Positions 5,843-38,402 of a stretch of 64,000 nucleotides of DNA are shown in pieces. The notes under the pieces were generated by a model. It worked only from the letters and a program-made list of their open reading frames with translations. It was not told the origin of the DNA and did not search any database. The stretch comes from Candidatus Nomurabacteria bacterium (GTDB taxonomy: Bacteria; Patescibacteriota; Minisyncoccia; Phycocordibacterales; UBA918): contig CP060228.1 of the NCBI GenBank assembly GCA_023898565.1, positions 496,594 through 560,593 of the forward strand, written 5' to 3'. Position 1 is the stretch's first letter; every line of letters begins with the position of its first letter. A program made the position numbers and the translations under genes.

Positions 5843-7153
5843 ATGTCTTGGTATCAAAAAAATCGTAAGCCACTCTTTCAGGCAATTCTTATATTTGTCC
5901 TGCTTTTTGGTTCAGTGGTGTTACTGACGCTTTACTATGATTTCACCAATATAGATCTTGGGGGATTATTGTTTCTGATGTCTTTCTTGTGTTGTGTTTT
6001 CGTGGCAAAAAATATCTATGACGTGACTCAGAATAGTGTAACCTCGGAAGAGCTTAAAAAAAGTGTTGCGCTCGATATGGCGGCTACGTCCGAAGAACTC
6101 TATGTACAGTTATATAAAAATAGTCCAGTTCCGTATCTTATCATCGATTTTGAGGGGAACATTAAATCTGCCAATATTTCTGCGGTACGCATGCTGGGAG
6201 TGGCGCAGCTTAAGGTAAAGGGTATTAATATTTTTAGTCGTTTGCAAAGTACTGAGCCCGAACATCTCGATTTACTGGTTGAAAAATACCGCAATGGTAT
6301 CGCGGTGAGCGATGAAATGGTTCGAGTGAGGCGTCCCGATCACCGCGAGGTTTGGTCACTTTTGTCACTTTTTGGTTTTACCAATGTTAGTGGCGAACGG
6401 GTTGGCCTCATGACGCTGGTTGATATCACCAAACAAAAAAAAGCTGAGGATGCAAAATCAGAATTTGTTTCGTTGGCCTCACACCAATTGCGCACACCAA
6501 TTGCTGGCATGAAGTGGAGCGCGGAGCTGCTTCTTATGGACGACTCAAATGCGCTCACAGAGCGTCAGCATAAGTACATTGATCGATTGCTTATCAGTAT
6601 CATGCGTATGTCTCGACTGGTTGACGACTTCCTTCGTGTTTCGCGCTTTGAATTAGGTACTTTTAAGGCGGAATACACCACGGTGTCTTTGTCAGAACTG
6701 TTTGATGACATCATATCAGAATTGGCTGTTAAAGTTGATCAGAAAAAACTCATCGTGAAAAAGTTTTACGATGAGACCGTTGACGCAGTAGTTACTGATC
6801 AAAATCTTATCCGGATGATCGTCACCAACTTATATTCAAACGCAACCAAATACACCCGTGAGGAGGGAACTATCCATTTAGGATTTGGACGCAAGGATGA
6901 CAGTCTGGTGATTACTGTGGCTGACAATGGTATGGGAATTCCGGCAGAAGACCAAGAAGAGATTTTCAGTAAATTATTCCGTGCATCCAACGCGGTTCGC
7001 AACGTGCCGGATGGGACAGGACTGGGGCTGTACATTGTTCGTGAAGCAGTTGCGGTACTAAAGGGTCAGGTTACCTTTACTACTACTGAAAATATTGGCA
7101 CTACGTTTGAAGTTACTTTGCCGCTAGAGCTCTCGGCTGAAACAAAAAAGTAA
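5843..7153 (+). CDS. Sensor histidine kinase (N-terminal TM, PAS-like domain, HisKA/HATPase_c)
   Basis: H-box SHQLRTPIAGMKW, N-box NLYSNATKYT and G-box GTGLGLYIVRE, with two N-terminal hydrophobic helices. Confidence 0.85.
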   Translation: MSWYQKNRKPLFQAILIFVLLFGSVVLLTLYYDFTNIDLGGLLFLMSFLCCVFVAKNIYDVTQNSVTSEELKKSVALDMAATSEELYVQLYKNSPVPYLIIDFEGNIKSANISAVRMLGVAQLKVKGINIFSRLQSTEPEHLDLLVEKYRNGIAVSDEMVRVRRPDHREVWSLLSLFGFTNVSGERVGLMTLVDITKQKKAEDAKSEFVSLASHQLRTPIAGMKWSAELLLMDDSNALTERQHKYIDRLLISIMRMSRLVDDFLRVSRFELGTFKAEYTTVSLSELFDDIISELAVKVDQKKLIVKKFYDETVDAVVTDQNLIRMIVTNLYSNATKYTREEGTIHLGFGRKDDSLVITVADNGMGIPAEDQEEIFSKLFRASNAVRNVPDGTGLGLYIVREAVAVLKGQVTFTTTENIGTTFEVTLPLELSAETKK

Positions 7154-7562: not shown

Positions 7563-7659
7563 ACGTATTAGTGTAACTCATTTTTAAGGTTTTTGGGTTT
7601 TTGGCTGTGGTCGCGCCCGGGTAGCAGCTGTCATTCACTACTGTTTTTGGTAAGAAAAT

Positions 7660-8301
7660 GTGAGACAATACGTCAAAACTAATATGAAAAAACAATTTAT
7701 TCTTTTGCTGATTATTGTACTGGCTCTTGTCGGTTTTTTTCTGTACAAGCAAGTAGTAAAACCACAGCTTGATAACCGTACTGTTGCTACGGTTGTTCCG
7801 GCTACTATTACTAATGAAACGCTTGGTTTTGGATTCACATTTCCAAGTGGTGAAGCGGGCTTTTCAATGATTGAGCCGCCGCTTCCAGAAGGGAGTGTCG
7901 ATGGGTTGCAGAAGATTTATCTCATTATGGATACGCAGAGTTATCTGATGTACCAGCAAGGTGACGATGCTGAAACTCCGCCAGCAGTGAGCGTGTTTGT
8001 GTTCACGATGCCCGATATGGAAAGCGCTGACGGACTTGATAGACTTGGTAAGTTAAAATTGTGGGCAGAGACATACAGTCGATATTCATCGTACGCGCTC
8101 AAGACATCAGACATTGAGACGGTTGAGATGGATGGAATTAAGGCGATTCGCTACACTGCTGAAGGAGCGCTGTATAAACAACAGGTATATTTAGTGTCAT
8201 ATCAAGGCAATATCTACATGTTTGCGGGTCAGTACATCAATGATACAGACACAATTAGAGACATGTATCTTCAGTTAGTTGCTTCTGCGACATTCGATTA
8301 G
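7660..8301 (+). CDS. Hypothetical membrane-anchored protein
   Basis: N-terminal hydrophobic helix FILLLIIVLALVGFFLY. The likely start is the MKKQF Met at about 7684. No motif was recognised. Confidence 0.4.
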   Translation: MRQYVKTNMKKQFILLLIIVLALVGFFLYKQVVKPQLDNRTVATVVPATITNETLGFGFTFPSGEAGFSMIEPPLPEGSVDGLQKIYLIMDTQSYLMYQQGDDAETPPAVSVFVFTMPDMESADGLDRLGKLKLWAETYSRYSSYALKTSDIETVEMDGIKAIRYTAEGALYKQQVYLVSYQGNIYMFAGQYINDTDTIRDMYLQLVASATFD

Positions 8302-14700: not shown

Positions 14701-15096
14701 TGGTGGAGATGGGGGGAGTTGAACCCCCGTCCGAATTAGGGCGCGATTGCGAGTCTACAGTGCGTAGTTAACCTTTTAGTTTAAGGGTGATAGCTAGAAG
14801 ATTAACCAAACACTATCACCTCGAGTTCATACAATTTAGACGTGCCTACGTGAACGGCGTAGGAATATCGAGCCTCATGGCTATTCTACCCGGGCAGTCG
14901 TATGAGACGTTTGACTTCCGAGCATCGCACCGGCGAGCGTTTATTTACGCAAAAGCGGGTGTGAATCCGAACGCGCGAGCGTAAGGACTTGGTACTGCTT
15001 TGTTTGCACGTACAGAGTGATCCGTCTTTACGAATTAGAATCATTTTCGACACTGCACACAACCGACACGACTAACCGTCGATGCCTAGCATCCCC
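14701..15096 (-). ncRNA. ssrA: tmRNA (SsrA, transfer-messenger RNA)
   Basis: Minus-strand 5' end GGGGATGCTAGGCATCGACGG and 3' end GGACGGGGGTTCAACTCCCCCCATCTCCACCA: a tRNA-Ala-like acceptor with the G3·U70 wobble and an encoded CCA. The internal tag reading frame ends ...FGFTPAFA-TAA; the resume codon was not determined. Lies next to smpB. Confidence 0.85.
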
Positions 15097-21662: not shown

Positions 21663-21790
21663 GCTTTCTCCATTGTAGCATTGTTTGTCCGCCCACTTGG
21701 ACTGACCTAGTTATTAAGGAGTGGAACGACTGTAATAACGGAAATACTCTTGTGGTGCGAACCAAGTGTATTGATACGAAAAAAACCCTG

Positions 21791-21863
21791 TCCGCCCACT
21801 TGGACTCGAACCAAGGACCACAGAGGTATAAGCTCTGCGCTCTACCAACTGAGCTATAGGCGG
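21791..21863 (-). tRNA. tRNA with anticodon UAU (predicted tRNA-Ile reading AUA)
   Basis: The minus strand folds as CCGCCUA-UA-GCUC-AGUUGGUA-GAGC-G-CAGAG-CUUAUAC-CUCUG-UGGUC-CUUGG-UUCGAGU-CCAAG-UGGGCGG-A: an Ile-like D-arm, U33, A37 and anticodon UAU in a 7-nt loop. Confidence 0.7.
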
Positions 21864-27943: not shown

Positions 27944-28063
27944 CCTCACCCCCAAGATGTGGTATCCTAGCAGGCACAAAATTACATAATTTTGAACGAA
28001 GAACAGTGGTCGAAAGCATTTCTGATTACTTACGTAGAGAACAATAGAAGTGTAAAAAGAGTA

Positions 28064-28085
28064 AAAACGGAGACGTGGCTGAGTG
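28064..28085 (+). repeat. Duplicate of the first roughly 20 nt of tRNA-Ser (plus 2-3 upstream nt), 118 nt upstream of the intact gene
   Basis: AAAAACGGAGACGTGGCTGAGTG at 28064-28085 versus AAATACGGAGACGTGGCTGAGTG at 28182-28203. No matching 3' acceptor strand follows, so it is not a tRNA. Confidence 0.6.
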
Positions 28086-28186
28086 CTCAATGAGTAAAGG
28101 AGTCGCAAGACGACTATTACGAATTAGTGTTTAATAGTCCAATGCTCTACAGGTAAAGAAAGAGCTTAGAAGAACAATACAAATAC

Positions 28187-28273
28187 GGAGACGTGGCTGA
28201 GTGGTCGAAAGCACCTCACTGCTAACGAGGCAGGGTCTAAAAGCCCTCGAAGGTTCGAATCCTTTCGTCTCCG
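28187..28273 (+). tRNA. tRNA-Ser (anticodon GCU)
   Basis: GGAGACG...CGTCTCC acceptor, anticodon loop CUGCUAA, long variable arm CAGGGTCTAAAAGCCCTCG and T-loop GGTTCGAATCC. Confidence 0.85.
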
Positions 28274-28384
28274 CACCGAATTTTTAGTATCGGCAAGACC
28301 CGTACGCCTTTATTTTGAGCCGTATTTTCATTGCCAAAGTTCGAATCCCATACCCTCTAAGCAGGTCAAACAATAACCTGCTCA

Positions 28385-28528
28385 TCATAAAGAGAGCAGG
28401 TTATCGAAGATGATAATTGCCGAGCTGACGACACACCCAAGTTGGAGTTACGGTTGTCATCCCAGTAGTTGTTGACGTTCAGACCATCGGAGTCGAAGTT
28501 GCCAACGTTGACGCGGTTGCCGTCTGCG
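28385..28528 (-). pseudogene. 3' remnant of a paralog of the 28897..29739 gene (C-terminal roughly 45 codons only; an upstream in-frame stop precedes it)
   Basis: 28419-28528 is about 80% identical over 110 nt to 28902-29010. The minus-frame translation ...ADGNRVNVGNFDSDGLNVNNYWDDNRNSNLGVSSARQ parallels ...ADGDRVFVGYFASAGLHVGDYWDDLRRSGLGVSSARE. Confidence 0.45.
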
Positions 28529-28896
28529 AACTTTGTCTGTTTCCGTCCGTATCACCAAGACTTGAGAGTCATCTATGTTGGAAACATAGCACTTCTTGTC
28601 TTTGTATTTTATGTAAGAGCACGAGTATTGAGATACTCGATCTCTATAGAAACAGACAAGGAATTATCTCTGTGTGATATACACTCTACATGCACCCAGT
28701 AGGTGCATGTACTCTGGTATAGACTTCAAACAAAGCACTTGTGAGATGAAACCAATAGTCGCACCTACACTAACAAGTACTTACAGTATACAAGAAAATG
28801 CCCCCAGCATGAAAGCCGGGGGCAAAATTTGCATCGAGCTGCTTCGCAACAAGATCAAAGATTCAAGAAGGTCAAGCCTTCAAGTAATCAAGGTTC

Positions 28897-29739
28897 TTAT
28901 TCCCGAGCCGACGACACACCCAAGCCGGAGCGACGGAGGTCATCCCAGTAGTCGCCGACGTGCAGACCAGCGGACGCGAAGTAGCCAACGAAGACGCGGT
29001 CGCCGTCTGCGTCAACCGAGGATGTCCTGACGTAAACGCCACGAAGCAGGTAGACGCCACGCACCTTGTAGTAGGCAGTAACGGCGTAGCTGACTTCGGG
29101 AGTGTTCGGAACACGCTCGTTTTCGGCTAGGAGCTTTTCCTGATCAGCCCACGTTTTGTTGCGGGAATCAGGATACGGCTCCTTACGGATTGCGAGCCAC
29201 ACGCCTGCCTTGACCACGTCCTCACGAGAGAACGTGTGTTGGCTCTCGGCATACCAACCCTCCGACTTGGAGTAGAACAGCTGGTTGTCGAGATCACGAA
29301 CCTGCAAGAGGTTCATGTCGGTCGGTGCTGTCGCCACGAGCATGTAGCCACTGGAGCGGAGCCACATCAGCTCTTCGAAATCGGGCAACGTATTGGCGAA
29401 ATTTGCCAGTTGCTCGTCGCTGTAGCTCCAGCCGTATGCCTTGGCCACATCTTCGGGAGACAGGTAGTCGTCACCGAGAATGAGGCGGGCGAGTTCTTCG
29501 CCATCGGGCAGGGTTGGGTTGATGGTTTCGCCGTTGTTGTTCACTTTCGGACAACCCATTTTGAGGTAGGCGGCCAGATTGCGACGAGCGGTTGTGTTGT
29601 CGATCGGCTTTTGCCAGTCGGCGAGGGTGACCCCTTCGTTTTCGAGAGTGCCAGTCAGCAAACCAAATTTTCTGAAAATTTTGGAAAGCGTGAGTTCTGT
29701 GGATGTCGATTTGGTCATCGGATACCACTCCTTCTTCAC
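28897..29739 (-). CDS. Hypothetical protein (GC-rich; the C-terminal GxYWDDxRxSxLGVSSAR motif is shared with the upstream remnant)
   Basis: 280-aa ORF. A hairpin (GCCCCCAGC...GCCGGGGGC) followed by a T-rich tract lies downstream on the minus strand. No family recognised. Confidence 0.45.
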   Translation of the reverse strand: MKKEWYPMTKSTSTELTLSKIFRKFGLLTGTLENEGVTLADWQKPIDNTTARRNLAAYLKMGCPKVNNNGETINPTLPDGEELARLILGDDYLSPEDVAKAYGWSYSDEQLANFANTLPDFEELMWLRSSGYMLVATAPTDMNLLQVRDLDNQLFYSKSEGWYAESQHTFSREDVVKAGVWLAIRKEPYPDSRNKTWADQEKLLAENERVPNTPEVSYAVTAYYKVRGVYLLRGVYVRTSSVDADGDRVFVGYFASAGLHVGDYWDDLRRSGLGVSSARE

Positions 29740-29775
29740 TAGAAATACCAGAACACCTGGTCATGGATCGCTCGG

Positions 29776-29831
29776 TAATGAGACGAACATTTTGCATATC
29801 AGTCATGACATACAAAATGTTCGTCTCATTA
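29776..29831. repeat. 19-bp perfect inverted repeat TAATGAGACGAACATTTTG / CAAAATGTTCGTCTCATTA with an 18-nt spacer that itself contains GTCATGAC
   Basis: Read directly; it sits between the 497-aa gene stop and the 280-aa gene start, at the GC/AT composition boundary. Confidence 0.6.
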
Positions 29832-29887
29832 AACCTTGAATGTGTAAAAGAACAAGTAATCTATGATAACACGGATTTAGGTAAAAG

Positions 29888-31381
29888 TCAATCTGAAGCA
29901 GTCGTCTTCCACTCAGTCAGTTTGCTTGCTTCTTCTTCAAACCGCTCTAAACTTTTAAACTGTTTTGGTTCTAAATTATGCAGTTCGATACCAGGATCAG
30001 GCAAGAATATCTGCAAGGGATATTTATCCCTGTTGTCATACACCATCTGATTGATATGGTCATCAAGATGACGAAAGCTGAAGTTGAGTAGCTCTACCGA
30101 TTTATCTATTTCAGCTAATTGAGCGTTGATTTTGTATGTCACATCAACCCCAATCATCTCTGACATCCGCTCTGCCACTTCCTTGAAAGCAAGGAGGTAT
30201 TGATAGTTCTCATAGACATGAGACTGATGGAGTAGGTAGTTAGGAAAAGCGAAAAGTATCAGGTCATCAACCTGCTTTTCATACTCAGTCACAAACGCTG
30301 ACTGTGACTTGGACTTCACTAAACTTTTGCCTGAGATGTACGACTTGTTGAGACTCACTTCAAAGAACCGAGTCGGACATTGTTCGGTCTGTATCTTTCC
30401 GTTTTTGATCAGCGTCTTTAGTTTTCGTTCACTTTTGTCTTTCGCCTTGATCCACAACTGCATCAGTTCGTTATGTGGTAGTTTCGTCTCACCTTCATAT
30501 GTTGTATGTCCAGTACAATGACACAGTGGTATGTACTCACTAAAGAATAAGCCGTCACGCACCGTATCACGCACTACCTGCTCCAGCTTGTATCGAAGAT
30601 CACTCAGCACACCAAGCTTGGTGCGTAGATCATCCTCATCTTCGTAGGTTATGTTGTCTCTTGATGCTAGTCGTTTGCCGAACTCAAGCATTGAGTAACC
30701 AGCAAAGTGGGTGTTAAACAACACTTGCTTAATACTAATTTTCGTATCATGCAACGACAGCTCGTGTCCCCACGGAATCTTTTCGATAATGATCTTGGTC
30801 AATGTGTGTACGTCTTCATCAGTTAGAGATTTTTTGCCGTGTACTATTCGAGCTAGTTGTTCTTCAGCTAGGAGGTAGCTATGGTCAGTATCAGCAATTG
30901 AATCAAGGAGTAAGATGTCTGACCGAATGTCTTTTGGTAATGAGTGTAGAGCTATGAGATGTGCTAGTCGGTCATATTCATACCCAGAGTATTGTAAGAA
31001 AAACTGATGCAGTTCTTCTCGCTGATCATCGGGAATAATCCGATCAAGATAATACTTCCATTGTCGCTCGTCGTTCTTTTTAAGATCAAATAAAGTCGCC
31101 GTATGTTCTAGGCGAGATAATGCCAGCATAGTGGTGAGGTAATTAGTTTGCATATCAAACTCCAGTCGCTGGAACATCTCCCAGAGATTGATGTATTGAT
31201 TGTATTTTTCCGCTTCACGATAGTCTTGTGGTTTCCAGTTTATGGTCAGTGCCACCATATCTGCTTCACTAATCAGCTCTTTGCCAGTCTTTTGGAAATG
31301 AGCATCATTGCGGATCACTAAAAGCACTCGCTCTTTCGGCGCTAGGTTTCCTTTGCGTAGCATTTTAGTGATGTCTTTCAT
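29888..31381 (-). CDS. Hypothetical 497-aa protein, last gene of the MTase operon (candidate effector or nuclease of an RM-like system)
   Basis: Long AT-rich ORF with a 3-nt gap to the upstream gene; contains the Cys/His cluster CHCTGH...C. No Walker A or confident nuclease motif was recognised by eye. Confidence 0.5.
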   Translation of the reverse strand: MKDITKMLRKGNLAPKERVLLVIRNDAHFQKTGKELISEADMVALTINWKPQDYREAEKYNQYINLWEMFQRLEFDMQTNYLTTMLALSRLEHTATLFDLKKNDERQWKYYLDRIIPDDQREELHQFFLQYSGYEYDRLAHLIALHSLPKDIRSDILLLDSIADTDHSYLLAEEQLARIVHGKKSLTDEDVHTLTKIIIEKIPWGHELSLHDTKISIKQVLFNTHFAGYSMLEFGKRLASRDNITYEDEDDLRTKLGVLSDLRYKLEQVVRDTVRDGLFFSEYIPLCHCTGHTTYEGETKLPHNELMQLWIKAKDKSERKLKTLIKNGKIQTEQCPTRFFEVSLNKSYISGKSLVKSKSQSAFVTEYEKQVDDLILFAFPNYLLHQSHVYENYQYLLAFKEVAERMSEMIGVDVTYKINAQLAEIDKSVELLNFSFRHLDDHINQMVYDNRDKYPLQIFLPDPGIELHNLEPKQFKSLERFEEEASKLTEWKTTASD

Positions 31382-31383
31382 AG

Positions 31384-31590
31384 TTATCTTCGTTCGCTTA
31401 AGAGTTGCTCCAATACGTCAATACGCTGTTTCAGTTCGAGATTGGAAATGTTCTTCGATAGAGCCAGTGCAAGTCGAGAAATGATCTGCGCTCGCTTGGG
31501 TGAAATTTTGCGAGCGGCCACCTGAAGCAAAGCCTCCGAGAGGATTTCATTAACTTCTTCTAGCGTGAGTGATTTCTTTATGTCGTTCAT
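31384..31590 (-). CDS. Hypothetical 68-aa helical protein
   Basis: Tightly packed (3-nt gaps) inside the operon; coiled-coil-like with a possible HTH. Confidence 0.35.
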   Translation of the reverse strand: MNDIKKSLTLEEVNEILSEALLQVAARKISPKRAQIISRLALALSKNISNLELKQRIDVLEQLLSERR

Positions 31591-31593
31591 ATT

Positions 31594-31986
31594 TTAATAA
31601 TTCTCAATTAGCTCAAACCACGTCTTCACTTCTTTGGACTTTCCGTGCTTGGTGACGTTCTTATATAAAGCCAACACGACATTTGGAGTGAGTTTCCTAG
31701 CCCAAGCACAGGTGTGTTCTACCAAGCCCTCTTCCTCGATAATTTTGTTCCAGTCGGTGAGCGTACCGAGGTCTTTGATGTCATACTGCGCCGCAAAATC
31801 TTTCTGGGTCTTAAGGCGAAGTAGATCAATGACAACTTCGTCTTCGATACCCATCTTGCGTATCACGGCTTCAGGCTGACCACGCAGAAAGGTCGGTAAC
31901 GATTTCCACGTTACGTAGGTGGCGAAGTCCTGCTTACGGTACACACCATCACTTTTCTTCGGTTGTTCATCGTGGGGTGTGCTCAT
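31594..31986 (-). CDS. Hypothetical 130-aa protein
   Basis: Overlaps the upstream MTase gene by 20 nt; no motif recognised. Confidence 0.4.
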   Translation of the reverse strand: MSTPHDEQPKKSDGVYRKQDFATYVTWKSLPTFLRGQPEAVIRKMGIEDEVVIDLLRLKTQKDFAAQYDIKDLGTLTDWNKIIEEEGLVEHTCAWARKLTPNVVLALYKNVTKHGKSKEVKTWFELIENY

Positions 31987-32743
31987 AATTCGTTACCAAT
32001 TTTCGTTTCTGACCAGTCAGTTTCTCAAGTCGCTTGAGTGCAATCTGTACATATTCAGCATCTTGTTCAATTCCAACACACCGTCGACCCAACTGTTCAC
32101 AAGCCAGAGCAGTACTCCCGCTACCCAAGAACCCATCAAATACCACGTCATCAATCTTCGTCACATTCCGAATTAGTTTACGAAGTAGCCCAATTGGTTT
32201 TTGGGTTGGGTGGAGTTTCGATTTTTGTGGTCGTGGGTGGTAGAGCGCACTTCGCATTTGTGAGGCTGGCTTCTTATGCTTGCCGTACCAGCCGTAGGCG
32301 ATGAGTTCTTGCTGGGGTAGATAGTCCATGCGACCCATGACTGGCTGGTTCTTCAGCCATACCAACATCTGACTGAAATGAAACTCAGCCGTGTATATGC
32401 CAGTGCGTAGTGACAAAAACATCGTGTCGCAGTTAAAGACATGGAAGGTGTTGTATGTATCAAGATGGGGCTTGATAGCACCAAGCCATGACTCGGTAAA
32501 GCGAGCGTATTCGTACTCACTTTGCAGATGGTCACCTTTGATATCTTTAGCGTTAGATACACCAAGCTCAGCTACTCCTTCTTTATTCTGAACGTACGCC
32601 ACACCATACGGCGGATCAGTCACAATCGCTTGTACTTTCTGTCCCTGCAGTACTTCAGATACAAAGGAAGCATTACAACTATCACCACAACCAATCAGAT
32701 GTGTGCCGACCAGGTAGATGTCTCCGTGTTGTACCTTTTTCAT
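31967..32743 (-). CDS. DNA methyltransferase, amino-MTase beta class (N6-adenine or N4-cytosine)
   Basis: Motif IV DPPYG near the N-terminus and motif I FDGFLGSGSTALAC near the C-terminus (the beta-class order). Confidence 0.85.
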   Translation of the reverse strand: MKKVQHGDIYLVGTHLIGCGDSCNASFVSEVLQGQKVQAIVTDPPYGVAYVQNKEGVAELGVSNAKDIKGDHLQSEYEYARFTESWLGAIKPHLDTYNTFHVFNCDTMFLSLRTGIYTAEFHFSQMLVWLKNQPVMGRMDYLPQQELIAYGWYGKHKKPASQMRSALYHPRPQKSKLHPTQKPIGLLRKLIRNVTKIDDVVFDGFLGSGSTALACEQLGRRCVGIEQDAEYVQIALKRLEKLTGQKRKLVTNYEHTPR

Positions 32744-34023
32744 ACGCGCTTGGCTGTTTGTTTGGTAAATTTCTCCCAGCGATCGATGATGGCACTGGCA
32801 AACACGGGATCAAGTTCGACGCCATACCACTTGCGATGCAATTGTTCGCAAGCGATAAGATCACTGCCACTGCCGCCAAAACCAGAGAACACTACGTGAC
32901 CAGGAGCGGTACAACGCTTGAGTGGTTTTTCACTTAAGCCAACCGGCTTCTGAGTCGGGTGCAAATACTCTTGCACGTTGTCCCGCTTCACAATCCAGAG
33001 GTCGATCATGTCGAGTAGCTCGTCATGAAGTTGGTTGCCGCTGGTTATTTTTTGATTAAGAATCTCGTTGGTGTTTTTGAGATTTTGATTTAGGTACGGC
33101 TTTCCACTTGTACCGTATACACACGGTTCATGTACTCGGTTAAAGGCAGTCTGCGGAGTTGGGTTTTGATTATTCTTCACCCACGAGCATAACCGCTTAA
33201 AAGTGATCTTGTGTTCCTTATACAGTGACTGAATATCACCAATGTATTTAGCATCACACCAGAAGAAATAGTGGGATTTGGGTAGAGCTATCTTGTGTGA
33301 GGTAGCAATACTGTTTGCAAGAAACTTTTGGTATTCAGCATCAGTCTTCGAGTCATCTTTAGCTGAGTACTTGCCTCCATAATTCTTGCCACTACCGATA
33401 CCTTTGTCATATGAGAGACCGATATTATAGGGCGGGTCTAGATAAATGAGGTGCGCTTTTGCTTCACCCATGAGTTTGGTAACCAGCTTTTCATTGGTAG
33501 AATCTCCGACCAAGAGGCGATGATCACCTAACTGCCAAATCTCTCCAAGCTTGGCTCGTGGCTCATCCATTTCTTCAATCGCTTTTTCAACATCATAGTC
33601 ATCTTCAGCGAGTTCGACATCATCGAAGAAACCTTGTAATTCTTCATCAGCAAATCCAACATCAAGTAAGACGTCGAGATCAAATGCTTTTAGCAATTCT
33701 TCATCCCACGAACCAGTGTTATGGTTCAAGCGAAGGTTTAACTCTCGCTCTTCTTCGAGCGTGAGTTCCCGAGAGGGAATCATACACTCGACTTCCTTGT
33801 ATCCAAGGTCAGCGTATATCTTTACTCGCTGTTCACCCCCGATCAGCACATCTGCTCGTGAGCCGATGTTTAGTACGACTGGTACAACTGCACCAAACTC
33901 CTCGATTGATTTTTGGAGATTGTGTCGTTCTTCTCCCTCCATCTTGCGTGGATTGTATCCATTGGGCGTGAGGTCTTGCACCTTACGCTTCGTGGATGAC
34001 CACGTTATCTTTTTTGACTTCAT
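32740..34023 (-). CDS. ParB-like nuclease domain fused to a DNA methyltransferase (beta-class amino-MTase)
   Basis: N-terminal ParB/Srx-like LTPNGYNPRKM...VLIGGEQRV, then DPPYN (motif IV) and C-terminal FSGFGGSGSDLIAC (motif I). Overlaps the downstream MTase by 4 nt. Confidence 0.85.
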   Translation of the reverse strand: MKSKKITWSSTKRKVQDLTPNGYNPRKMEGEERHNLQKSIEEFGAVVPVVLNIGSRADVLIGGEQRVKIYADLGYKEVECMIPSRELTLEEERELNLRLNHNTGSWDEELLKAFDLDVLLDVGFADEELQGFFDDVELAEDDYDVEKAIEEMDEPRAKLGEIWQLGDHRLLVGDSTNEKLVTKLMGEAKAHLIYLDPPYNIGLSYDKGIGSGKNYGGKYSAKDDSKTDAEYQKFLANSIATSHKIALPKSHYFFWCDAKYIGDIQSLYKEHKITFKRLCSWVKNNQNPTPQTAFNRVHEPCVYGTSGKPYLNQNLKNTNEILNQKITSGNQLHDELLDMIDLWIVKRDNVQEYLHPTQKPVGLSEKPLKRCTAPGHVVFSGFGGSGSDLIACEQLHRKWYGVELDPVFASAIIDRWEKFTKQTAKRV

Positions 34024-34185
34024 ACATAATGTTGCTTAGGCACACTGTTCGTGTGTTATGTATGATTATCGAAGGAATCAGAGCTTTAAAATAGGTCGAG
34101 CAAATCCGAGCAAACGCAAAAAACGCCTTGTGTTACCAAGACGTTTTTTGTTAATCCACAGACTTGTTTACGCTGGTTTGCTCAG

Positions 34186-35340
34186 CTACAGGTTATTTCT
34201 AAAAGTGATGTAGTCGTCAGTGGCTTCGAGCACCATCTCTCTAGTGTCGGGTCGCAGATTATCGACCCCATTATCCTTTAAGAAGTTATGAAATGACTTA
34301 GCACTCTTGCCGACATTAGATCGATACTTGTCAGATGATCGTTCGTCAGGCGGTAGTAGCTCTTTGAACTTTTTAATTGATATCTTCTCTTGATTTGCTG
34401 GCATGTACTTGAGAATGTTTTTAAACAGTTTGATGTACATTGGGTCACCTTCGCCTCGTAGTTTGTATGTGAGTTTTTCTGATTTGCTGTGATGATAAAT
34501 GTTGCCATCCTTAAGATAAAAGATACTGTTCGCAACAGTCTCTTTGGTGTCATCCTCGTCATTATTCATAATGATTGAGTTGTGAATGCGCTCCAAATCA
34601 CTATGGAATCGTCGACGACCAAAGTAATCACTAGATCGAATATCGCCTGACATGAGTTTTGCGTATTCCTTATGCCGACTATTCTCAAGTAATTTACCCA
34701 TAAAATTTTTCGTCGTTGCATCGAAACTGATACTGTTATTGCTGAAATAGATCATTTCTTGATACCCCTCTGTTAAACGAGTGAGTGCTCCAGCATAGTC
34801 ACTGATATCTTGACGCATGAAGACTTCCTCAGCTCCCAGGTACGCTTTTATATTTTTCGTTACGGTAATTTTCTTATCGCTTAGTTGGTTTGTCGATTCT
34901 ATCTTTTGATCAAGAAATTCATTAGCCTCATCATAATATTCTAGTTCGATCAGCCTTCTTACAAAATCAAAGATCTCACTTTGCATCGTATCAAAACGAT
35001 TACCGCCAATGACTGTGGTAGAGCCATCTAGTAAACTATCAAGATCTTCTATGCTCGATGCAATTACAGGATCTTCCTTAACATCTAGTTTGTCTGCAAT
35101 CTTGTTGAACTTACTTTGAATTTTGATGATTTCTTTCAGTAGCTCATCCCGTTGTTTTTCTAAGGTTTCCAGCCTTTGCTTGCGTGCAATGATATCGGTA
35201 CCTAAGTGGAGAAGTAGGTCTGTGCCATGTTCAGCTAAAAAGCCAATATAGTCCTGAAAAGCAATCACGAAACTCCGATCTAAAACCTTACTGTATAGAG
35301 TGTCGAACAGTAGTTTCTCCTTATTTAACAAGCTATTCAT
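34186..35340 (-). CDS. Hypothetical 384-aa protein (AT-rich; its own transcription unit)
   Basis: Long ORF followed by an A/T-flanked hairpin at about 34118-34150 on the minus strand; no motif recognised. Confidence 0.45.
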   Translation of the reverse strand: MNSLLNKEKLLFDTLYSKVLDRSFVIAFQDYIGFLAEHGTDLLLHLGTDIIARKQRLETLEKQRDELLKEIIKIQSKFNKIADKLDVKEDPVIASSIEDLDSLLDGSTTVIGGNRFDTMQSEIFDFVRRLIELEYYDEANEFLDQKIESTNQLSDKKITVTKNIKAYLGAEEVFMRQDISDYAGALTRLTEGYQEMIYFSNNSISFDATTKNFMGKLLENSRHKEYAKLMSGDIRSSDYFGRRRFHSDLERIHNSIIMNNDEDDTKETVANSIFYLKDGNIYHHSKSEKLTYKLRGEGDPMYIKLFKNILKYMPANQEKISIKKFKELLPPDERSSDKYRSNVGKSAKSFHNFLKDNGVDNLRPDTREMVLEATDDYITFRNNL

Positions 35341-35532
35341 AAAGAGATGATAGCATTTTTCAGTATTCTAATGTGAAAAGCGAAAGTGCTCTATAATTGG
35401 CATTGTTTGGCATTTGGAGACCCCGACCCGTAGACATCAGAAAATCTGACGACCAGTCGCTAAAATACCCTTATGGGGTCTACAGCGTGGGGTACTTAAC
35501 CCGAGTGGCCCGCCGTTTAGAGCTGGCACGAA

Positions 35533-36207
35533 GTGCTTATGTTGAAGAAATTTTGGGAACAAAACAAACATCAACTCCAGTTAGTTGGAATACTTATTGG
35601 TGTGGGAGCACTTTTTCTTTCGATACCAATTCCTGAGATTGAGGAGGCTGCAGAGGCATTGAAAAAGATTCAACTAATTTGGCTACTGATAGTAACAATT
35701 TCAACAGGGTTACTATTTGTAAACTTGCATAAGTTATCAAGACTCTACGAAATTGATAGTACGAAGGATAAGGATAGTTTTAATTTTGATGAAACAATAT
35801 CAATTGTAATTGGACTAACAATTGCATATTTCATTAGTAATATGTGGATATATGCCTATTCACTATATCGGGAAGTAATTTTTGATTTCATTGAAACTGT
35901 ACAATTTGGAATCACTGCATTTTTAGTGGCAGTCACATACCACTGTTGGAGAAAAATAGTTCTAAAGTTTGAAAATCACAATCCGAAACTTAGAGTCTGT
36001 ATAGCAATTACAGGTCACGCTATTAATGCGTTGCTACTCGGTGCTTGGCTACATGTTTCAATTAATAGTTGGGAATTCGTTTTGAATGAATGGCTGTATT
36101 GGTCAGTTGGAACTTTTGTGGTCATGATGGCCATGGGTTTGATGATTGATTGGAAAAGAAAAAGCGAAAGCGCTCGAGACACTATCGAACCTGAAACTGA
36201 AAAGTAG
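35533..36207 (+). CDS. Hypothetical integral membrane protein (about 6 TM)
   Basis: Multiple hydrophobic helices; AT-rich. Confidence 0.45.
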   Translation: MLMLKKFWEQNKHQLQLVGILIGVGALFLSIPIPEIEEAAEALKKIQLIWLLIVTISTGLLFVNLHKLSRLYEIDSTKDKDSFNFDETISIVIGLTIAYFISNMWIYAYSLYREVIFDFIETVQFGITAFLVAVTYHCWRKIVLKFENHNPKLRVCIAITGHAINALLLGAWLHVSINSWEFVLNEWLYWSVGTFVVMMAMGLMIDWKRKSESARDTIEPETEK

Positions 36208-36301
36208 TTAATCGGTCAAGCAGGGCTCGGTACCATACGGTTCTTGCTCGAGACCAACACGAGACAGATGTCTCGTGCTGGTTTTGCGTTATAATTACAC
36301 T

Positions 36302-37426
36302 ATGAAAAAGATTCTTTTAATAATGTCAGTGGCCTGTGCCGTTGTAGTGTTATTCATTGCTCTGGCAGGTATGTATAAGTTTAACTACTTAGCTTCTTTG
36401 CCTGGGTATGATGTTGATGGTAATCAGATTGAAACAACTGATGCTTTTGAAGTGGTTGAAGTGTTAGGTCAAAGTTGTCAATCTGATAACGATTGCGAAA
36501 CTCCAGCAGCCTATGCAATACAGTCGAATTGTCCATACGACTCGGTATGTATTGCAAATAGTTGTGCTGTTGTTTGTCCGCACCCGTTTTCAGGGTCGTC
36601 AATTGATGTTGCTGGCCCGAAGAACGCCGCCTACACGCTAGATGGTGAAACGGTGACTCTGGTTGATGGTGTATCTGAAGCAGAAGTAGCACCTGATTCG
36701 ACAACTAAAATCATCACGCGGTATTTTGGTAACGAAGTACAAACTGATCTCAACAACGATGGTCGTACAGATGCTGTATTTTTACTCACTCAAGAAACAG
36801 GTGGTACGGGAACATTTTTCTACGTTGTTGCGGCGCTCAATACTAAAGACGGGTGGGTCGGATCTCGTGGATACTTTTTGGGGGATCGAATAGCGCCGCA
36901 GTCCACTGAAGTAAGCAGAAACATAAATCATAAGAATGTGATAGTGGTTAATTATGCCGACAGAGAAGACGGCCGGCCGATGTCTGAACAACCGTCTGTT
37001 GGTAAAAGTGTTTGGTTGAAACTAGATATAGACTCAATGACTTTTGGTGAGGTTGTACAAGATTTCGAAGGAGATGCTGATCCAAATGTGATGACGCTTA
37101 ATATGCAGATATGGACATGGGTTAAAACTCAGTACAACAATGATACTGAGTTTACTCCAAACCAAGCAGAAGCGTTTACTCTTGCTTTTACAGAAGAGGG
37201 GACAATTTCAGCTACAACTGATTGTAATTCTATGCATGGTACCTACGAACTCCATGAGAATGAAATTACGTTTGGTCCAATGGCGATGACCAGAATGTTT
37301 TGTGCAGAATCGCAAGAGCAGGAATTTGCAGAAATGTTATCAAAAACTCAATCATATTTTTTTACATCAAGAGGAGAGCTCGTTTTTGAACTGAAGGACG
37401 ACGCTGGCTCGGCGATATTTCGTTAA
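36302..37426 (+). CDS. Secreted/membrane-anchored protein with a Cys-rich segment and a C-terminal META (HslJ-like) domain
   Basis: Signal/TM MKKILLIMSVACAVVVLFIALAG; CQSDNDCETP...CPYDSVCIANSCAVVCP; C-terminal TTDCNSMHGTYELHENEITFGPMAMTRMFC, which is META-domain-like. Confidence 0.5.
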   Translation: MKKILLIMSVACAVVVLFIALAGMYKFNYLASLPGYDVDGNQIETTDAFEVVEVLGQSCQSDNDCETPAAYAIQSNCPYDSVCIANSCAVVCPHPFSGSSIDVAGPKNAAYTLDGETVTLVDGVSEAEVAPDSTTKIITRYFGNEVQTDLNNDGRTDAVFLLTQETGGTGTFFYVVAALNTKDGWVGSRGYFLGDRIAPQSTEVSRNINHKNVIVVNYADREDGRPMSEQPSVGKSVWLKLDIDSMTFGEVVQDFEGDADPNVMTLNMQIWTWVKTQYNNDTEFTPNQAEAFTLAFTEEGTISATTDCNSMHGTYELHENEITFGPMAMTRMFCAESQEQEFAEMLSKTQSYFFTSRGELVFELKDDAGSAIFR

Positions 37427-37463
37427 AACTAACGTGCACTAAATACCTAACAACAGACGATGG

Positions 37464-38402
37464 ATGGTTTGTTATACTGCGGTAATGAATAAACAGGAAA
37501 TGATTGCTGAATTTGCAATTCGGTCGTCATTAGTGAAAGATCCGAAGGTATCATTTTTGGCTGGAGGCTTTGGGAATGAAAACTATCTGATACAAGAGGG
37601 TGATTTACAGTACGTGCTTCGTCTTAAGAAGAGTGATGAACCGCAATTCCGTGATTCGCTAGAGCGTGAATACATATTTTTAAAGTACTACAATGAGTGT
37701 GGTGTAGTATTTTGTCCCAAGGCACTGTATTTTGATTCGAGAGACAACTATCTCATTGAGAGTTTTCTGCCCGGAAAGCTTACTCTGTTAAAAGATTTTA
37801 CCAATGAGCAAGTCGATCAATTTGCTAGGCAGTTGGCCAGTCTGTTTCATCTTAGCGTGCCAGACTTCTATGTCTTTTGTACAAAAAACAATCTAAGAAA
37901 ATATAAGCAAGAAGACCCAATCTCTCTCCTGCAAAAATATGGGTTTGAGCGCTTAGCTGAAGCTAAGCGGTATGGGTTTTCGGGAGAGTCTGCGGCTTGG
38001 CTAGAAGGCTCTTTAAACGAAAATTTGGAATATTTTGAAAATCAAAGTGTAACTGCTGAGCTGGGATTTTCCTGGGGCGATGTGCAGTCAAGTCTGATTA
38101 TTGGCCCAGGCGACGAAATGTACTTTTACGATTTTGAACATACGGTAATTTCTGACTTTAATGATCTGGCATATATTAAAATTCACAGCGGTTTTGATTC
38201 AAGGCAGTTGGAATATTTTGTTGAAAGATGTGCGAAGTATCTCAATAGAAGTACGGATTCTTTAATTTTTAGTATGAATGCTAGTGAGAAAGCAATTCGA
38301 ACCAATGATGCAATTTGGGCCGCGTGGCAGTGGTCTCAAACTGGTGATGCTAGCTTTGAACAAATGTTACATGAGCGGATTGCTTTAGTGAAAGGTTTGT
38401 AG
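37464..38402 (+). CDS. Phosphotransferase-family (APH/choline-kinase-like) protein kinase-fold enzyme, possibly degenerate
   Basis: N-terminal GFGNENYLI...VLRLKK (nucleotide-binding loop and Lys) and a DFE (cation-binding) motif; the catalytic loop is atypical. Confidence 0.4.
   Translation: MVCYTAVMNKQEMIAEFAIRSSLVKDPKVSFLAGGFGNENYLIQEGDLQYVLRLKKSDEPQFRDSLEREYIFLKYYNECGVVFCPKALYFDSRDNYLIESFLPGKLTLLKDFTNEQVDQFARQLASLFHLSVPDFYVFCTKNNLRKYKQEDPISLLQKYGFERLAEAKRYGFSGESAAWLEGSLNENLEYFENQSVTAELGFSWGDVQSSLIIGPGDEMYFYDFEHTVISDFNDLAYIKIHSGFDSRQLEYFVERCAKYLNRSTDSLIFSMNASEKAIRTNDAIWAAWQWSQTGDASFEQMLHERIALVKGL

Follow-up and report, generated by a model that had tools for sequence, protein, structure and literature searches.

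A conserved phage-derived operon with two DNA methyltransferases as a probable fixed part of tRNA-side integrative islands in Patescibacteria

A block of five minus-strand genes (positions 29888–34023) was analysed in a stretch of 64,000 nucleotides from Candidatus Nomurabacteria bacterium (GenBank assembly GCA_023898565.1, contig CP060228.1, positions 496,594 to 560,593 of the forward strand); the whole stretch is called the window below, and positions are counted from its first letter. The five genes are one conserved, selected, phage-derived operon that looks like the fixed part of tRNA-side integrative islands with swappable cargo. The original prediction had taken the block for a restriction–modification (R-M)-like module; this was not supported, the 130-residue product belonging to the small-terminase (TerS) family, the DNA methyltransferases (MTases) being of phage type, and the genes for the 68- and 497-residue products occurring as a pair without MTases elsewhere. 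We consider it likely that the block is a mobile-element backbone of phage origin and not an R-M system; that it is the backbone of small (≈7–16 kb) integrative islands most likely behaving like phage satellites is a statement which, taken whole, we hold to be evenly poised between right and wrong.

All five minus-strand open reading frames were found where they had been placed, at 34023–32740, 32743–31967, 31986–31594, 31590–31384 and 31381–29888; the products have, in this order, 427, 258, 130, 68 and 497 residues. Genes one and two overlap by 4 nt (32743/32740) and genes two and three by 20 nt (31986/31967), the latter in disagreement with the 3–4-nt packing claimed earlier; the remaining two junctions are gaps of 3 and 2 nt. 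A convincing terminator was not found on the minus strand between the five genes, and the operon claim was borne out by the tight packing together with the same gene order recurring in dozens of independent contigs. The block had also been called an AT-rich island; the GC content of the five genes is indeed lower (0.444 against 0.477 for the window, flanks 0.48–0.49), but the difference is modest, and the DNA of lowest GC content in the window (0.39–0.40) adjoins the five genes at 34186–38402, outside them. NCBI annotation of the five genes gives DNA methylases and hypothetical proteins and nothing more specific; the nearest relatives elsewhere carry the labels Saccharibacteria or Patescibacteria. 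Window proteins were scanned as single sequences against Pfam, PHROG, PADLOC and NCBIfam (E ≤ 0.01); in agreement with the earlier view that the three downstream proteins (130, 68 and 497 residues) are uncharacterised, no match of theirs in these collections reached a family threshold.

The order ParB–MTase, MTase, ≈130, ≈70 and ≈490 residues is kept with near-identical lengths wherever the DNA is long enough, and was seen in the related loci L001–L015, L016–L027 and L125–L126 (numbers of this kind denote loci throughout). A metagenome scan seeded with the family of the 130-residue protein gave 80 further loci, and in those with enough DNA, which form the denominators here, the ParB–MTase gene lay upstream of the TerS-like gene in 43/43, the second MTase gene upstream of it in 57/57, the 68-residue gene downstream and directly after it in 63/63, and a gene of the 497-residue family downstream in 46/49; a large terminase (TerL) or portal gene was present in 0/49. 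Conservation of the cluster in related genomes, on which the earlier claim had partly depended, was thus confirmed by a near-invariant order in dozens of loci from many environments; in related loci the cluster lies among defence genes. The ratio of nonsynonymous to synonymous substitution rates (dN/dS; against L026, L007 and L014) was 0.01–0.08 for all five genes, lowest for the 130-residue gene (≈0.01); all five are under purifying selection. The 497-residue protein diverges faster than the other operon proteins (48–64% against 72–96% identity). Nucleotide similarity between the window and L026, L007 and L014 is confined to the five genes (34012–29846, 88.7% identity to L026) and a block at the left end of the island.

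The first gene (32740–34023, minus strand; USN88395.1, 'DNA modification methylase' at NCBI) encodes a ParB-like N-terminal domain joined to a beta-class N6A/N4C DNA MTase (427 residues), and the second (31967–32743, minus strand; USN88394.1) a further beta-class DNA MTase of 258 residues. Their earlier assignment to the beta-class amino-MTases was confirmed by Pfam N6_N4_Mtase (5e-25 and 6e-31, respectively); in both translations DPPY (motif IV) precedes FxGxGS (motif I), so that the S-adenosylmethionine motif I and the catalytic motif IV of a type II R-M methylase are in place. The ParB-like domain claimed for the first enzyme was likewise recovered (phrog_620, 1.7e-23); Pfam ParB_N gave 1.7e-5 and 25.2 bits, just below its gathering cut-off of 26.3. 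The 427-residue protein is matched over its whole length by phrog_498 (1e-92), which also matches the 258-residue MTase (3e-62); PADLOC MTase_II PDLC03229 matches the 427-residue protein as well (5e-55). The two MTase domains are ≈27% identical to each other, and the second MTase is missing in the L023–L025 lineage. The solved structures nearest to the ParB–MTase are DpnA-like 5hek (2e-11) and CcrM 6pbd (7e-8), and solitary beta-class adenine methylases (CcrM; DpnA/M1.HpyAVI-like) are accordingly the nearest solved relatives of the MTase domains of the operon; the CcrM NCBIfam score of the operon MTases is far under the cut-off, and, unlike these solitary methylases, the first MTase of the operon has a ParB-like N-terminal domain and sits on a mobile island. 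Judged by phrog_498 and by gene context in L028 and L032, both MTases are of the type that phages carry beside terminase genes.

The third gene (31594–31986, minus strand) encodes a small-terminase-like helix-turn-helix (HTH) protein of 130 residues. Pfam HTH_28 was matched weakly at residues ≈50–88 in 23/26 members of its family, and an AlphaFold2 model (predicted local distance difference test, pLDDT, 73.6) gave weak matches to homeodomain/Tc3-type HTH folds; both results predict the DNA-binding HTH domain expected of a TerS. Homologues in IMG/VR are 30–54% identical (BLASTP 5e-25 for L029), and their genes lie immediately 5' of the TerL gene (phrog_2), often overlapping it, with the portal gene next, in L029/30, L031, L032, L036, L038, L039 and L040; in L034 and L035 the TerS-like gene is followed by a gene of ≈1.6 kb and then by the portal gene. 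Viral contigs that have a relative in the TerS position number nine or more. A ParB–MTase or a ParB-domain match was found a few kb upstream of the TerS-like gene in L028, L032, L034 and L035, and the L040 homologue matches phrog_24579 and phrog_2538 (terminase small subunit) at ≈4e-5. Assignment of the 130-residue protein to TerS therefore comes from homology to proteins in the TerS position, chiefly from genomic context, and is putative. Given the TerS-like/TerL/portal context and the upstream ParB–MTase in the viral contigs, the first three operon genes mirror a common phage arrangement: the ParB-like MTase (phrog_498) and TerS of the island correspond to the packaging neighbourhoods (ParB–MTase ... 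TerS–TerL–portal) of L028, L032, L034, L035 and L036. Unlike these neighbourhoods, the island has the unrelated 68- and 497-residue proteins in the positions of TerL and portal. The island TerS-like proteins stop ≈25–45 residues short of their phage homologues, the C-terminal tail being missing. The 130-residue protein was also considered as an R-M controller; this was ruled out by its membership in the phage small-terminase family.

The fourth gene (31384–31590, minus strand) encodes a conserved, probably helical protein of 68 residues with no Pfam or PHROG family; its single NCBIfam match is below threshold (TIGR01639, E 0.0022, 18 bits against a cut-off of 25.75). It was tried as the detached C-terminal tail of a phage TerS and rejected, as a search for similarity gave nothing. 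The fifth gene (29888–31381, minus strand) encodes the 497-residue all-alpha protein, whose family has no Pfam model. It has 27 close homologues, and a profile search extended the family to 267 clusters (50% identity), all of which lack Pfam domains. The AlphaFold2 model built with the 27 homologues (pLDDT 85.6, predicted TM-score 0.74) is elongated in its predicted shape and consists almost entirely of helices, several of them of 25–45 residues. Neither a nuclease nor a nucleoside triphosphatase (NTPase) fold was found in the model, and there was no match in the PDB or BFVD (Foldseek against BFVD: best E 0.046, TM ≈0.1); PDB sequence and profile searches and Pfam scans gave nothing consistent, member-by-member scans of the 497- and 68-residue families gave scattered single matches only, and zero matches were obtained with the 497-residue protein in the INPHARED phage genomes. 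By modelled fold and by sequence, the 497-residue protein is thus predicted to be no nuclease, NTPase, portal or terminase. Most invariant positions of the family lie in its N-terminal ≈100 residues (E17, R18, E39, D41, Y60, N61, W67, D76, Q78, T79, R90); the Cys/His cluster noticed earlier is not conserved, C287 and H303 alone being largely kept. Hidden Markov models (HMMs) of the 68- and 497-residue families found nothing in the phage contigs that carry TerS relatives.

More distant members of the 497-residue family point to the 68/497 pair as the deepest unit. In L043 and L044 a 129-residue protein, the C-terminus of which matches the 68-residue HMM (2.6e-6), is followed by a 543-residue member of the 497-residue family and then directly by a serine recombinase; upstream of the pair lie an XRE-type regulator, a DnaG-type Zn-ribbon protein and a P-loop protein. 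In L043 the 68-residue homologue is the C-terminal half of the 129-residue protein (7615–8004), and the N-terminus of the latter carries a Cys/His motif, CQHVKKNGSECEAFPMHGEEYCFLH, that resembles a small zinc-binding module. In L041 and L042 the family member precedes an S49/NfeD-type protease and two tyrosine integrases. The 497-family genes of L041–L044 all occur without any MTase.

The island of the window extends over ≈28275–35531 (≈7.3 kb). It abuts a tRNA-Ser(GCU) gene (28187–28274, plus strand; ARAGORN and Rfam) with the 3' end toward the island, and this gene is the probable integration site. In six loci (L016, L069, L087, L092, L118, L067) a tRNA gene of the opposite strand follows the serine recombinase (Ser-GCU twice, Ser-UGA twice, Asn, Gln), and the tRNA-Ser(GCU) gene of the window has the same relative orientation. 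Of 30 loci in which the downstream DNA reaches 4 kb or more, 13 have a large serine recombinase gene there on the same strand, in several cases directly after the 497-family gene. Island ends were sought as direct repeats of the tRNA and not found, as would be the case for a serine recombinase that works with a 2-bp crossover; the search gave partial copies of the tRNA 5' half and nothing else. Two such copies of the tRNA-Ser(GCU) 5' half, at 28005–28018 and 28063–28088, precede the intact gene by 118 and 195 nt, beyond it as seen from the island, and may have been left by past recombination there; by eye only, a fragment resembling the T-arm and acceptor, GTTCGAATCCCATACCCTC, was noticed at ≈28339–28357, just past the tRNA gene. 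Two different large serine recombinases (≈49–70% identical) flank several islands (L001 4594–5949/18855–20180; L026 2308–3582/18821–20080; L126 4103–5701/16450–17775), an arrangement that points to elements lying in tandem or nested at a single site. L001 and L005 have right-hand recombinases that are 96% identical, while the 497-residue proteins of these two loci are only ≈50% identical to that of the window; the contrast indicates a mosaic history.

Upstream of the operon there is a variable slot, occupied in the window by a gene for 384 residues (34186–35340, minus strand; USN88396.1), 162 nt upstream of the ParB–MTase gene and with 8 homologues only. Occupants elsewhere are unrelated (268, 308, 396 + 186, 451 and 619 residues); in L125, which ends with a serine recombinase, the slot holds a 790-residue Prim-Pol/PriCT_1 helicase that has a Walker A motif and, over its C-terminal 500 residues, 39% identity to the P-loop protein of L043. 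An HTH_3 and Peptidase_M78 pair (XRE/ImmA-type) was found in L019 and beside L001. A conserved 19-nt motif, AAATGCCAAACAATGCCAA, stands at the island's left end, with two ATGCCAA repeats spaced by 10 nt, about one helical turn (35397–35415, minus strand). Within the window the motif occurs exactly once, and 14 related loci have it without a mismatch (L001 at 5999–6017); it sits 55–75 nt before the variable gene, is kept where the flanks differ or the adjacent gene is swapped, and in L019 and L021 lies left of the M78/HTH_3 pair. Left of AAATGCCAAACAATGCCAA the window shares another ≈100 nt of conserved DNA with L026, L007 and L014 (window against L026, 95% identity); the conserved 120 nt on this side show little covariation for an RNA structure. 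The region of the motif could be an operator, a pac-like site or an element end.

Variable cargo often lies between the 497-family gene and the recombinase and differs between loci: a diversity-generating retroelement (DGR; target, template repeat (TR), Avd and reverse transcriptase (RT)) with a ResIII/MTase pair; Mrr, DUF2779, an SNF2 helicase and a Type ISP enzyme; and AbiEii with a C5/N6 fusion methylase. The first pair, a ResIII helicase (≈765 residues, weak YagJ match) and a convergent N6_N4 MTase of 563–571 residues, recurs in many islands immediately after the operon or its DGR (L001 14528–18518, L019 11117–15110, L023 12699–16719 and others) and is missing from the window; from its sequence it looks like Type III-like R-M cargo travelling with the backbone.

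An integrase, a replication gene, a regulator and a terS homologue with no TerL or virion genes make up the architecture of phage satellites of the phage-inducible chromosomal island (PICI) type, and it is from this architecture that a satellite-like mode is inferred for the islands. The packaging determinant would be the TerS homologue, and neither the metagenomic loci (TerL or portal, 0/49) nor the island of the window has the genes that normally accompany it; replication genes were found in relatives (Prim-Pol/PriCT_1 with Walker A in L125; the DnaG Zn-ribbon and the homologous P-loop protein in L043), and viral contigs with TerS relatives of up to 54% identity (L036) give the only pointer to a helper phage. 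The islands resemble PICIs and Staphylococcus aureus pathogenicity islands (SaPIs) in being small and probably integrated beside a tRNA/att site; part of the copies have an integrase, the candidate replication gene varies and is a primase-helicase in a few of them, and an XRE/ImmA-type regulator is likewise present in a few. A terS homologue and defence cargo are further points of likeness, as is the lack of large terminase, portal, capsid, tail and lysis genes; the island length is also PICI-like (7–16 kb against 31–39 kb for the viral contigs with related TerS). Unlike PICIs and SaPIs, the island family relies on a large serine recombinase, counts two DNA methylases among its fixed backbone genes, has a tail-less TerS, carries the 68/497 all-alpha pair in place of Cpm/Ppi/Sid-type proteins and resides in the phylum Patescibacteria. 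Staphylococcal cassette chromosome (SCC) elements, with their ccr genes, are chromosomal cassette islands mobilised by serine recombinases, and the likeness to them consists in the large serine recombinase at one end of a chromosomal island with swappable cargo; insertion beside a tRNA gene, the phage-derived backbone (MTases and TerS) and the different cargo set the present islands apart.

In a satellite-like cycle, the serine recombinase would insert and excise the island at the 3' side of a tRNA gene, and the gene of the upstream slot would replicate it. The two methylases would modify island (and host) DNA, so that the island could survive restriction in the next cell. The TerS homologue would bind island DNA and pass it to the large terminase of a helper phage for packaging. 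The 68/497 pair would be an accessory of this step and could serve the tail-less TerS as an adaptor, or could intervene in helper assembly as a scaffold or a blocker. More tentatively, and with rather less than even prospects of being right, we propose that these are the first phage satellites of Patescibacteria and the candidate phyla radiation (CPR), that the tail-less TerS and the 68/497 pair capture the packaging or capsid machinery of the helper, that the methylases pre-protect the DNA, and that the islands ferry DGRs and restriction systems among these ultra-small epibionts. A description of this cluster, or of satellites in Patescibacteria, was not found in the literature searched. The copy in the window, beside tRNA-Ser(GCU), has lost its recombinase and the RT of its DGR; because of these losses it is probably immobile, yet it is selected.

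Several observations weigh against a satellite-like mode. A helper phage, an excised circle or a packaged form was not seen; the only match to the island itself in a viral database is IMG/VR UViG_3300000970_000154, in which the island lies between two recombinases and virion genes were not found in the ≈21 kb examined. A serine recombinase lay within 10 kb in 9/21 loci, under half, and tblastn for the recombinase across the 64-kb window gave nothing. In the 384-residue slot protein of the window a recognisable replication domain was not found, nor any family match. The 130-residue protein of the window reached zero TerS profiles in the Pfam and PHROG scans, and the tail-less TerS of the islands, to judge from its truncated sequence, may not bind a large terminase. 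Finally, in L043 and L044 a methylase or TerS homologue was not found beside the 68/497 pair; since such elements have the pair with no TerS homologue, the pair need not serve packaging.

In another reading the islands are integrative elements of a different kind, plasmid-like or spread by transformation. Maintenance, partition or gene regulation would then be the task of the ParB domain and the TerS-like HTH protein, with the 19-nt repeat motif as their candidate binding site, and the 68/497 pair would act in excision control or replication. The ParB-type domain, the HTH protein, a direct-repeat motif kept strictly at the island's left end, the presence of an integrase near the 68/497 pair in every case and primase-helicase genes typical of plasmid-like elements all suit this reading. 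Against it, every one of the nearest non-island relatives of the HTH protein occupies the phage TerS position, a ParA-type partition ATPase was not seen among the genes called beside the operon in the loci examined, and conjugation or mobilisation genes were not seen beside it either. We regard this reading as unlikely.

Somewhat more doubtful is a domesticated defence by interference with packaging, in which the tail-less TerS would serve as a decoy and, with the 68/497 pair, poison the terminase or procapsid assembly of a phage, with no transfer of the island; such a system would resemble SaPI Ppi or the Listeria TerI system. It would leave two methylases, the replication genes of the upstream slot and the recurrent recombinase–tRNA junction unexplained, and the 68/497 pair exists in elements with no TerS homologue. 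It would account for a TerS homologue that lacks both TerL and the C-terminal tail, for the very strong constraint on its gene (dN/dS ≈0.01), for retention of the window copy after loss of the integrase and for the defence-island context; a prophage system that blocks packaging by targeting the terminase has been reported (bioRxiv 10.1101/2025.02.27.640495).

An R-M-like or methylation-coupled defence, the function first proposed, would have the MTases mark self and the 497-residue protein, with the 130- and 68-residue proteins as controller or adaptor, attack unmarked DNA by way of a new fold. The likeness to a two-methylase Type II/IIS R-M system (M1–M2–R) is real as far as it goes: two beta-class amino-MTases stand in tandem in one operon, and a protein of ≈500 residues comes after them; the tandem MTases have PADLOC MTase_II matches, the operon is tight, the neighbourhood is rich in Type I, III and ISP R-M systems, Mrr, AbiEii, OLD and DGRs, the 497-residue protein evolves faster than its neighbours, and invariant acidic and basic residues cluster in its N-terminal domain. 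Unlike M1–M2–R, the downstream proteins show no nuclease fold or motif: the folds of cognate endonucleases (PD-(D/E)xK, HNH, GIY-YIG, PLD) were sought in them and not found, and what follows the methylases is a TerS homologue and two helical proteins. The 497-residue protein had been thought the right size for a restriction or effector subunit; its confident all-alpha model, in which similarity to nucleases or NTPases was not found, speaks against such a role, as does the lack of conservation of its Cys/His cluster. Models of the 497- and 130-residue proteins and PADLOC searches of these and the 68-residue protein, among the means of checking put forward at the outset, gave no nuclease or NTPase fold and no defence match, and a predicted HTH in the 130-residue protein; zero defence-model matches (PADLOC-DB v2) were obtained for the 130-, 68-, 497-, 384- and 280-residue proteins (the last is described below). 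Nor are MTase and presumed effector always inherited together, the 497-residue family occurring without an MTase in L041–L044, where the relatives of the pair stand beside integrases and, in part, a primase-helicase, and one variant of the operon lacking the second MTase. It had been stated that the defence claim would fall if both MTases were orphan phage methylases and the 497-residue protein modelled as a phage structural or replication protein; the MTases do look like orphan phage-type enzymes, whereas the model does not resemble any known phage structural or replication protein. Taken with the TerS-family membership of the 130-residue protein, the phage-type MTases and the MTase-free pair beside integrases fit a mobile-element backbone better than a methylation-coupled defence, which we judge improbable. 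That the block is a decaying prophage remnant with no present function is hardly credible. In its favour are the phage origin of the genes and the loss of recombinase, Avd and RT from the window copy; but dN/dS is 0.01–0.08 for all five genes, dozens of divergent loci from many environments keep the same gene order and lengths, and structural genes (TerL or portal) occur in 0/49 loci.

Between the operon and the tRNA gene the window retains part of a DGR. The target gene (28897–29739, minus strand; 280 residues) has its variable repeat (VR) at the 3' end (≈28903–29011), and the TR (28407–28528, minus strand) lies 483 nt downstream of the VR copy; the repeat is 122 nt long, its 109-nt core has 18 mismatches, and 17/18 of these are at TR adenines, as in a DGR TR/VR pair. 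With the L001 proteins as queries, tblastn found neither RT nor Avd in the 64-kb window. Target, TR, Avd and RT occupy the same position in related islands (RT/Avd in L001–4, L007, L014 and L026), and the 280-residue target of the window is not homologous to their 345-residue target outside the VR. Between the 497-residue gene and the target gene lies a 56-nt hairpin (29776–29831) with 26-nt arms that are 92% complementary; across five loci it has 23 pairs, 8 of them with compensatory changes (L026 11555–11609, L007 11552–11608, L014 11540–11594, L001 11560–11600). The stem contains the ATG of the target gene in L007, L014 and L026, and the hairpin is missing where there is no DGR (L008, L016); it may act as a terminator or in the control of translation. 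The five-gene block ceases to resemble L026, L007 and L014 at 29846–29847.

The AT-rich DNA at 34186–38402 contains, besides the 384-residue slot gene, genes for a 224-residue protein with no family match, a 383-residue META-domain protein and a 312-residue kinase-like protein. Elsewhere in the window a tRNA-Ile gene with anticodon TAT (UAU), a rarity in bacteria, was found at 21790–21863 (minus strand), and a tmRNA gene at 14701–15096 (minus strand), with the tag peptide ANKAVPSPYARAFGFTPAFA.

Patescibacteria (CPR) have tiny genomes, mostly without CRISPR, and gene exchange among them is poorly understood. The block described here is probably not a new restriction system; it looks like a widespread, uncharacterised island backbone of the poorly known mobile elements of this group, and it marks an island family whose backbone recurs in dozens of contigs from many sampling projects. 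Since they carry DGRs and several kinds of restriction systems, the islands are a likely route by which defence and surface-variation genes spread among CPR bacteria. For annotation the case advises caution, as two MTases plus an unassigned protein of 500 residues need not mean an R-M system, and phage-type ParB–MTases beside a TerS homologue are a recognisable signature. Even if the satellite reading were wrong, the 497-residue family (267 clusters at 50% identity with no Pfam or structural relative) is a defined target for functional work; if it is right, satellite parasitism of phages would reach a further major lineage, with the 68/497 pair as a new class of proteins that hijack helpers.

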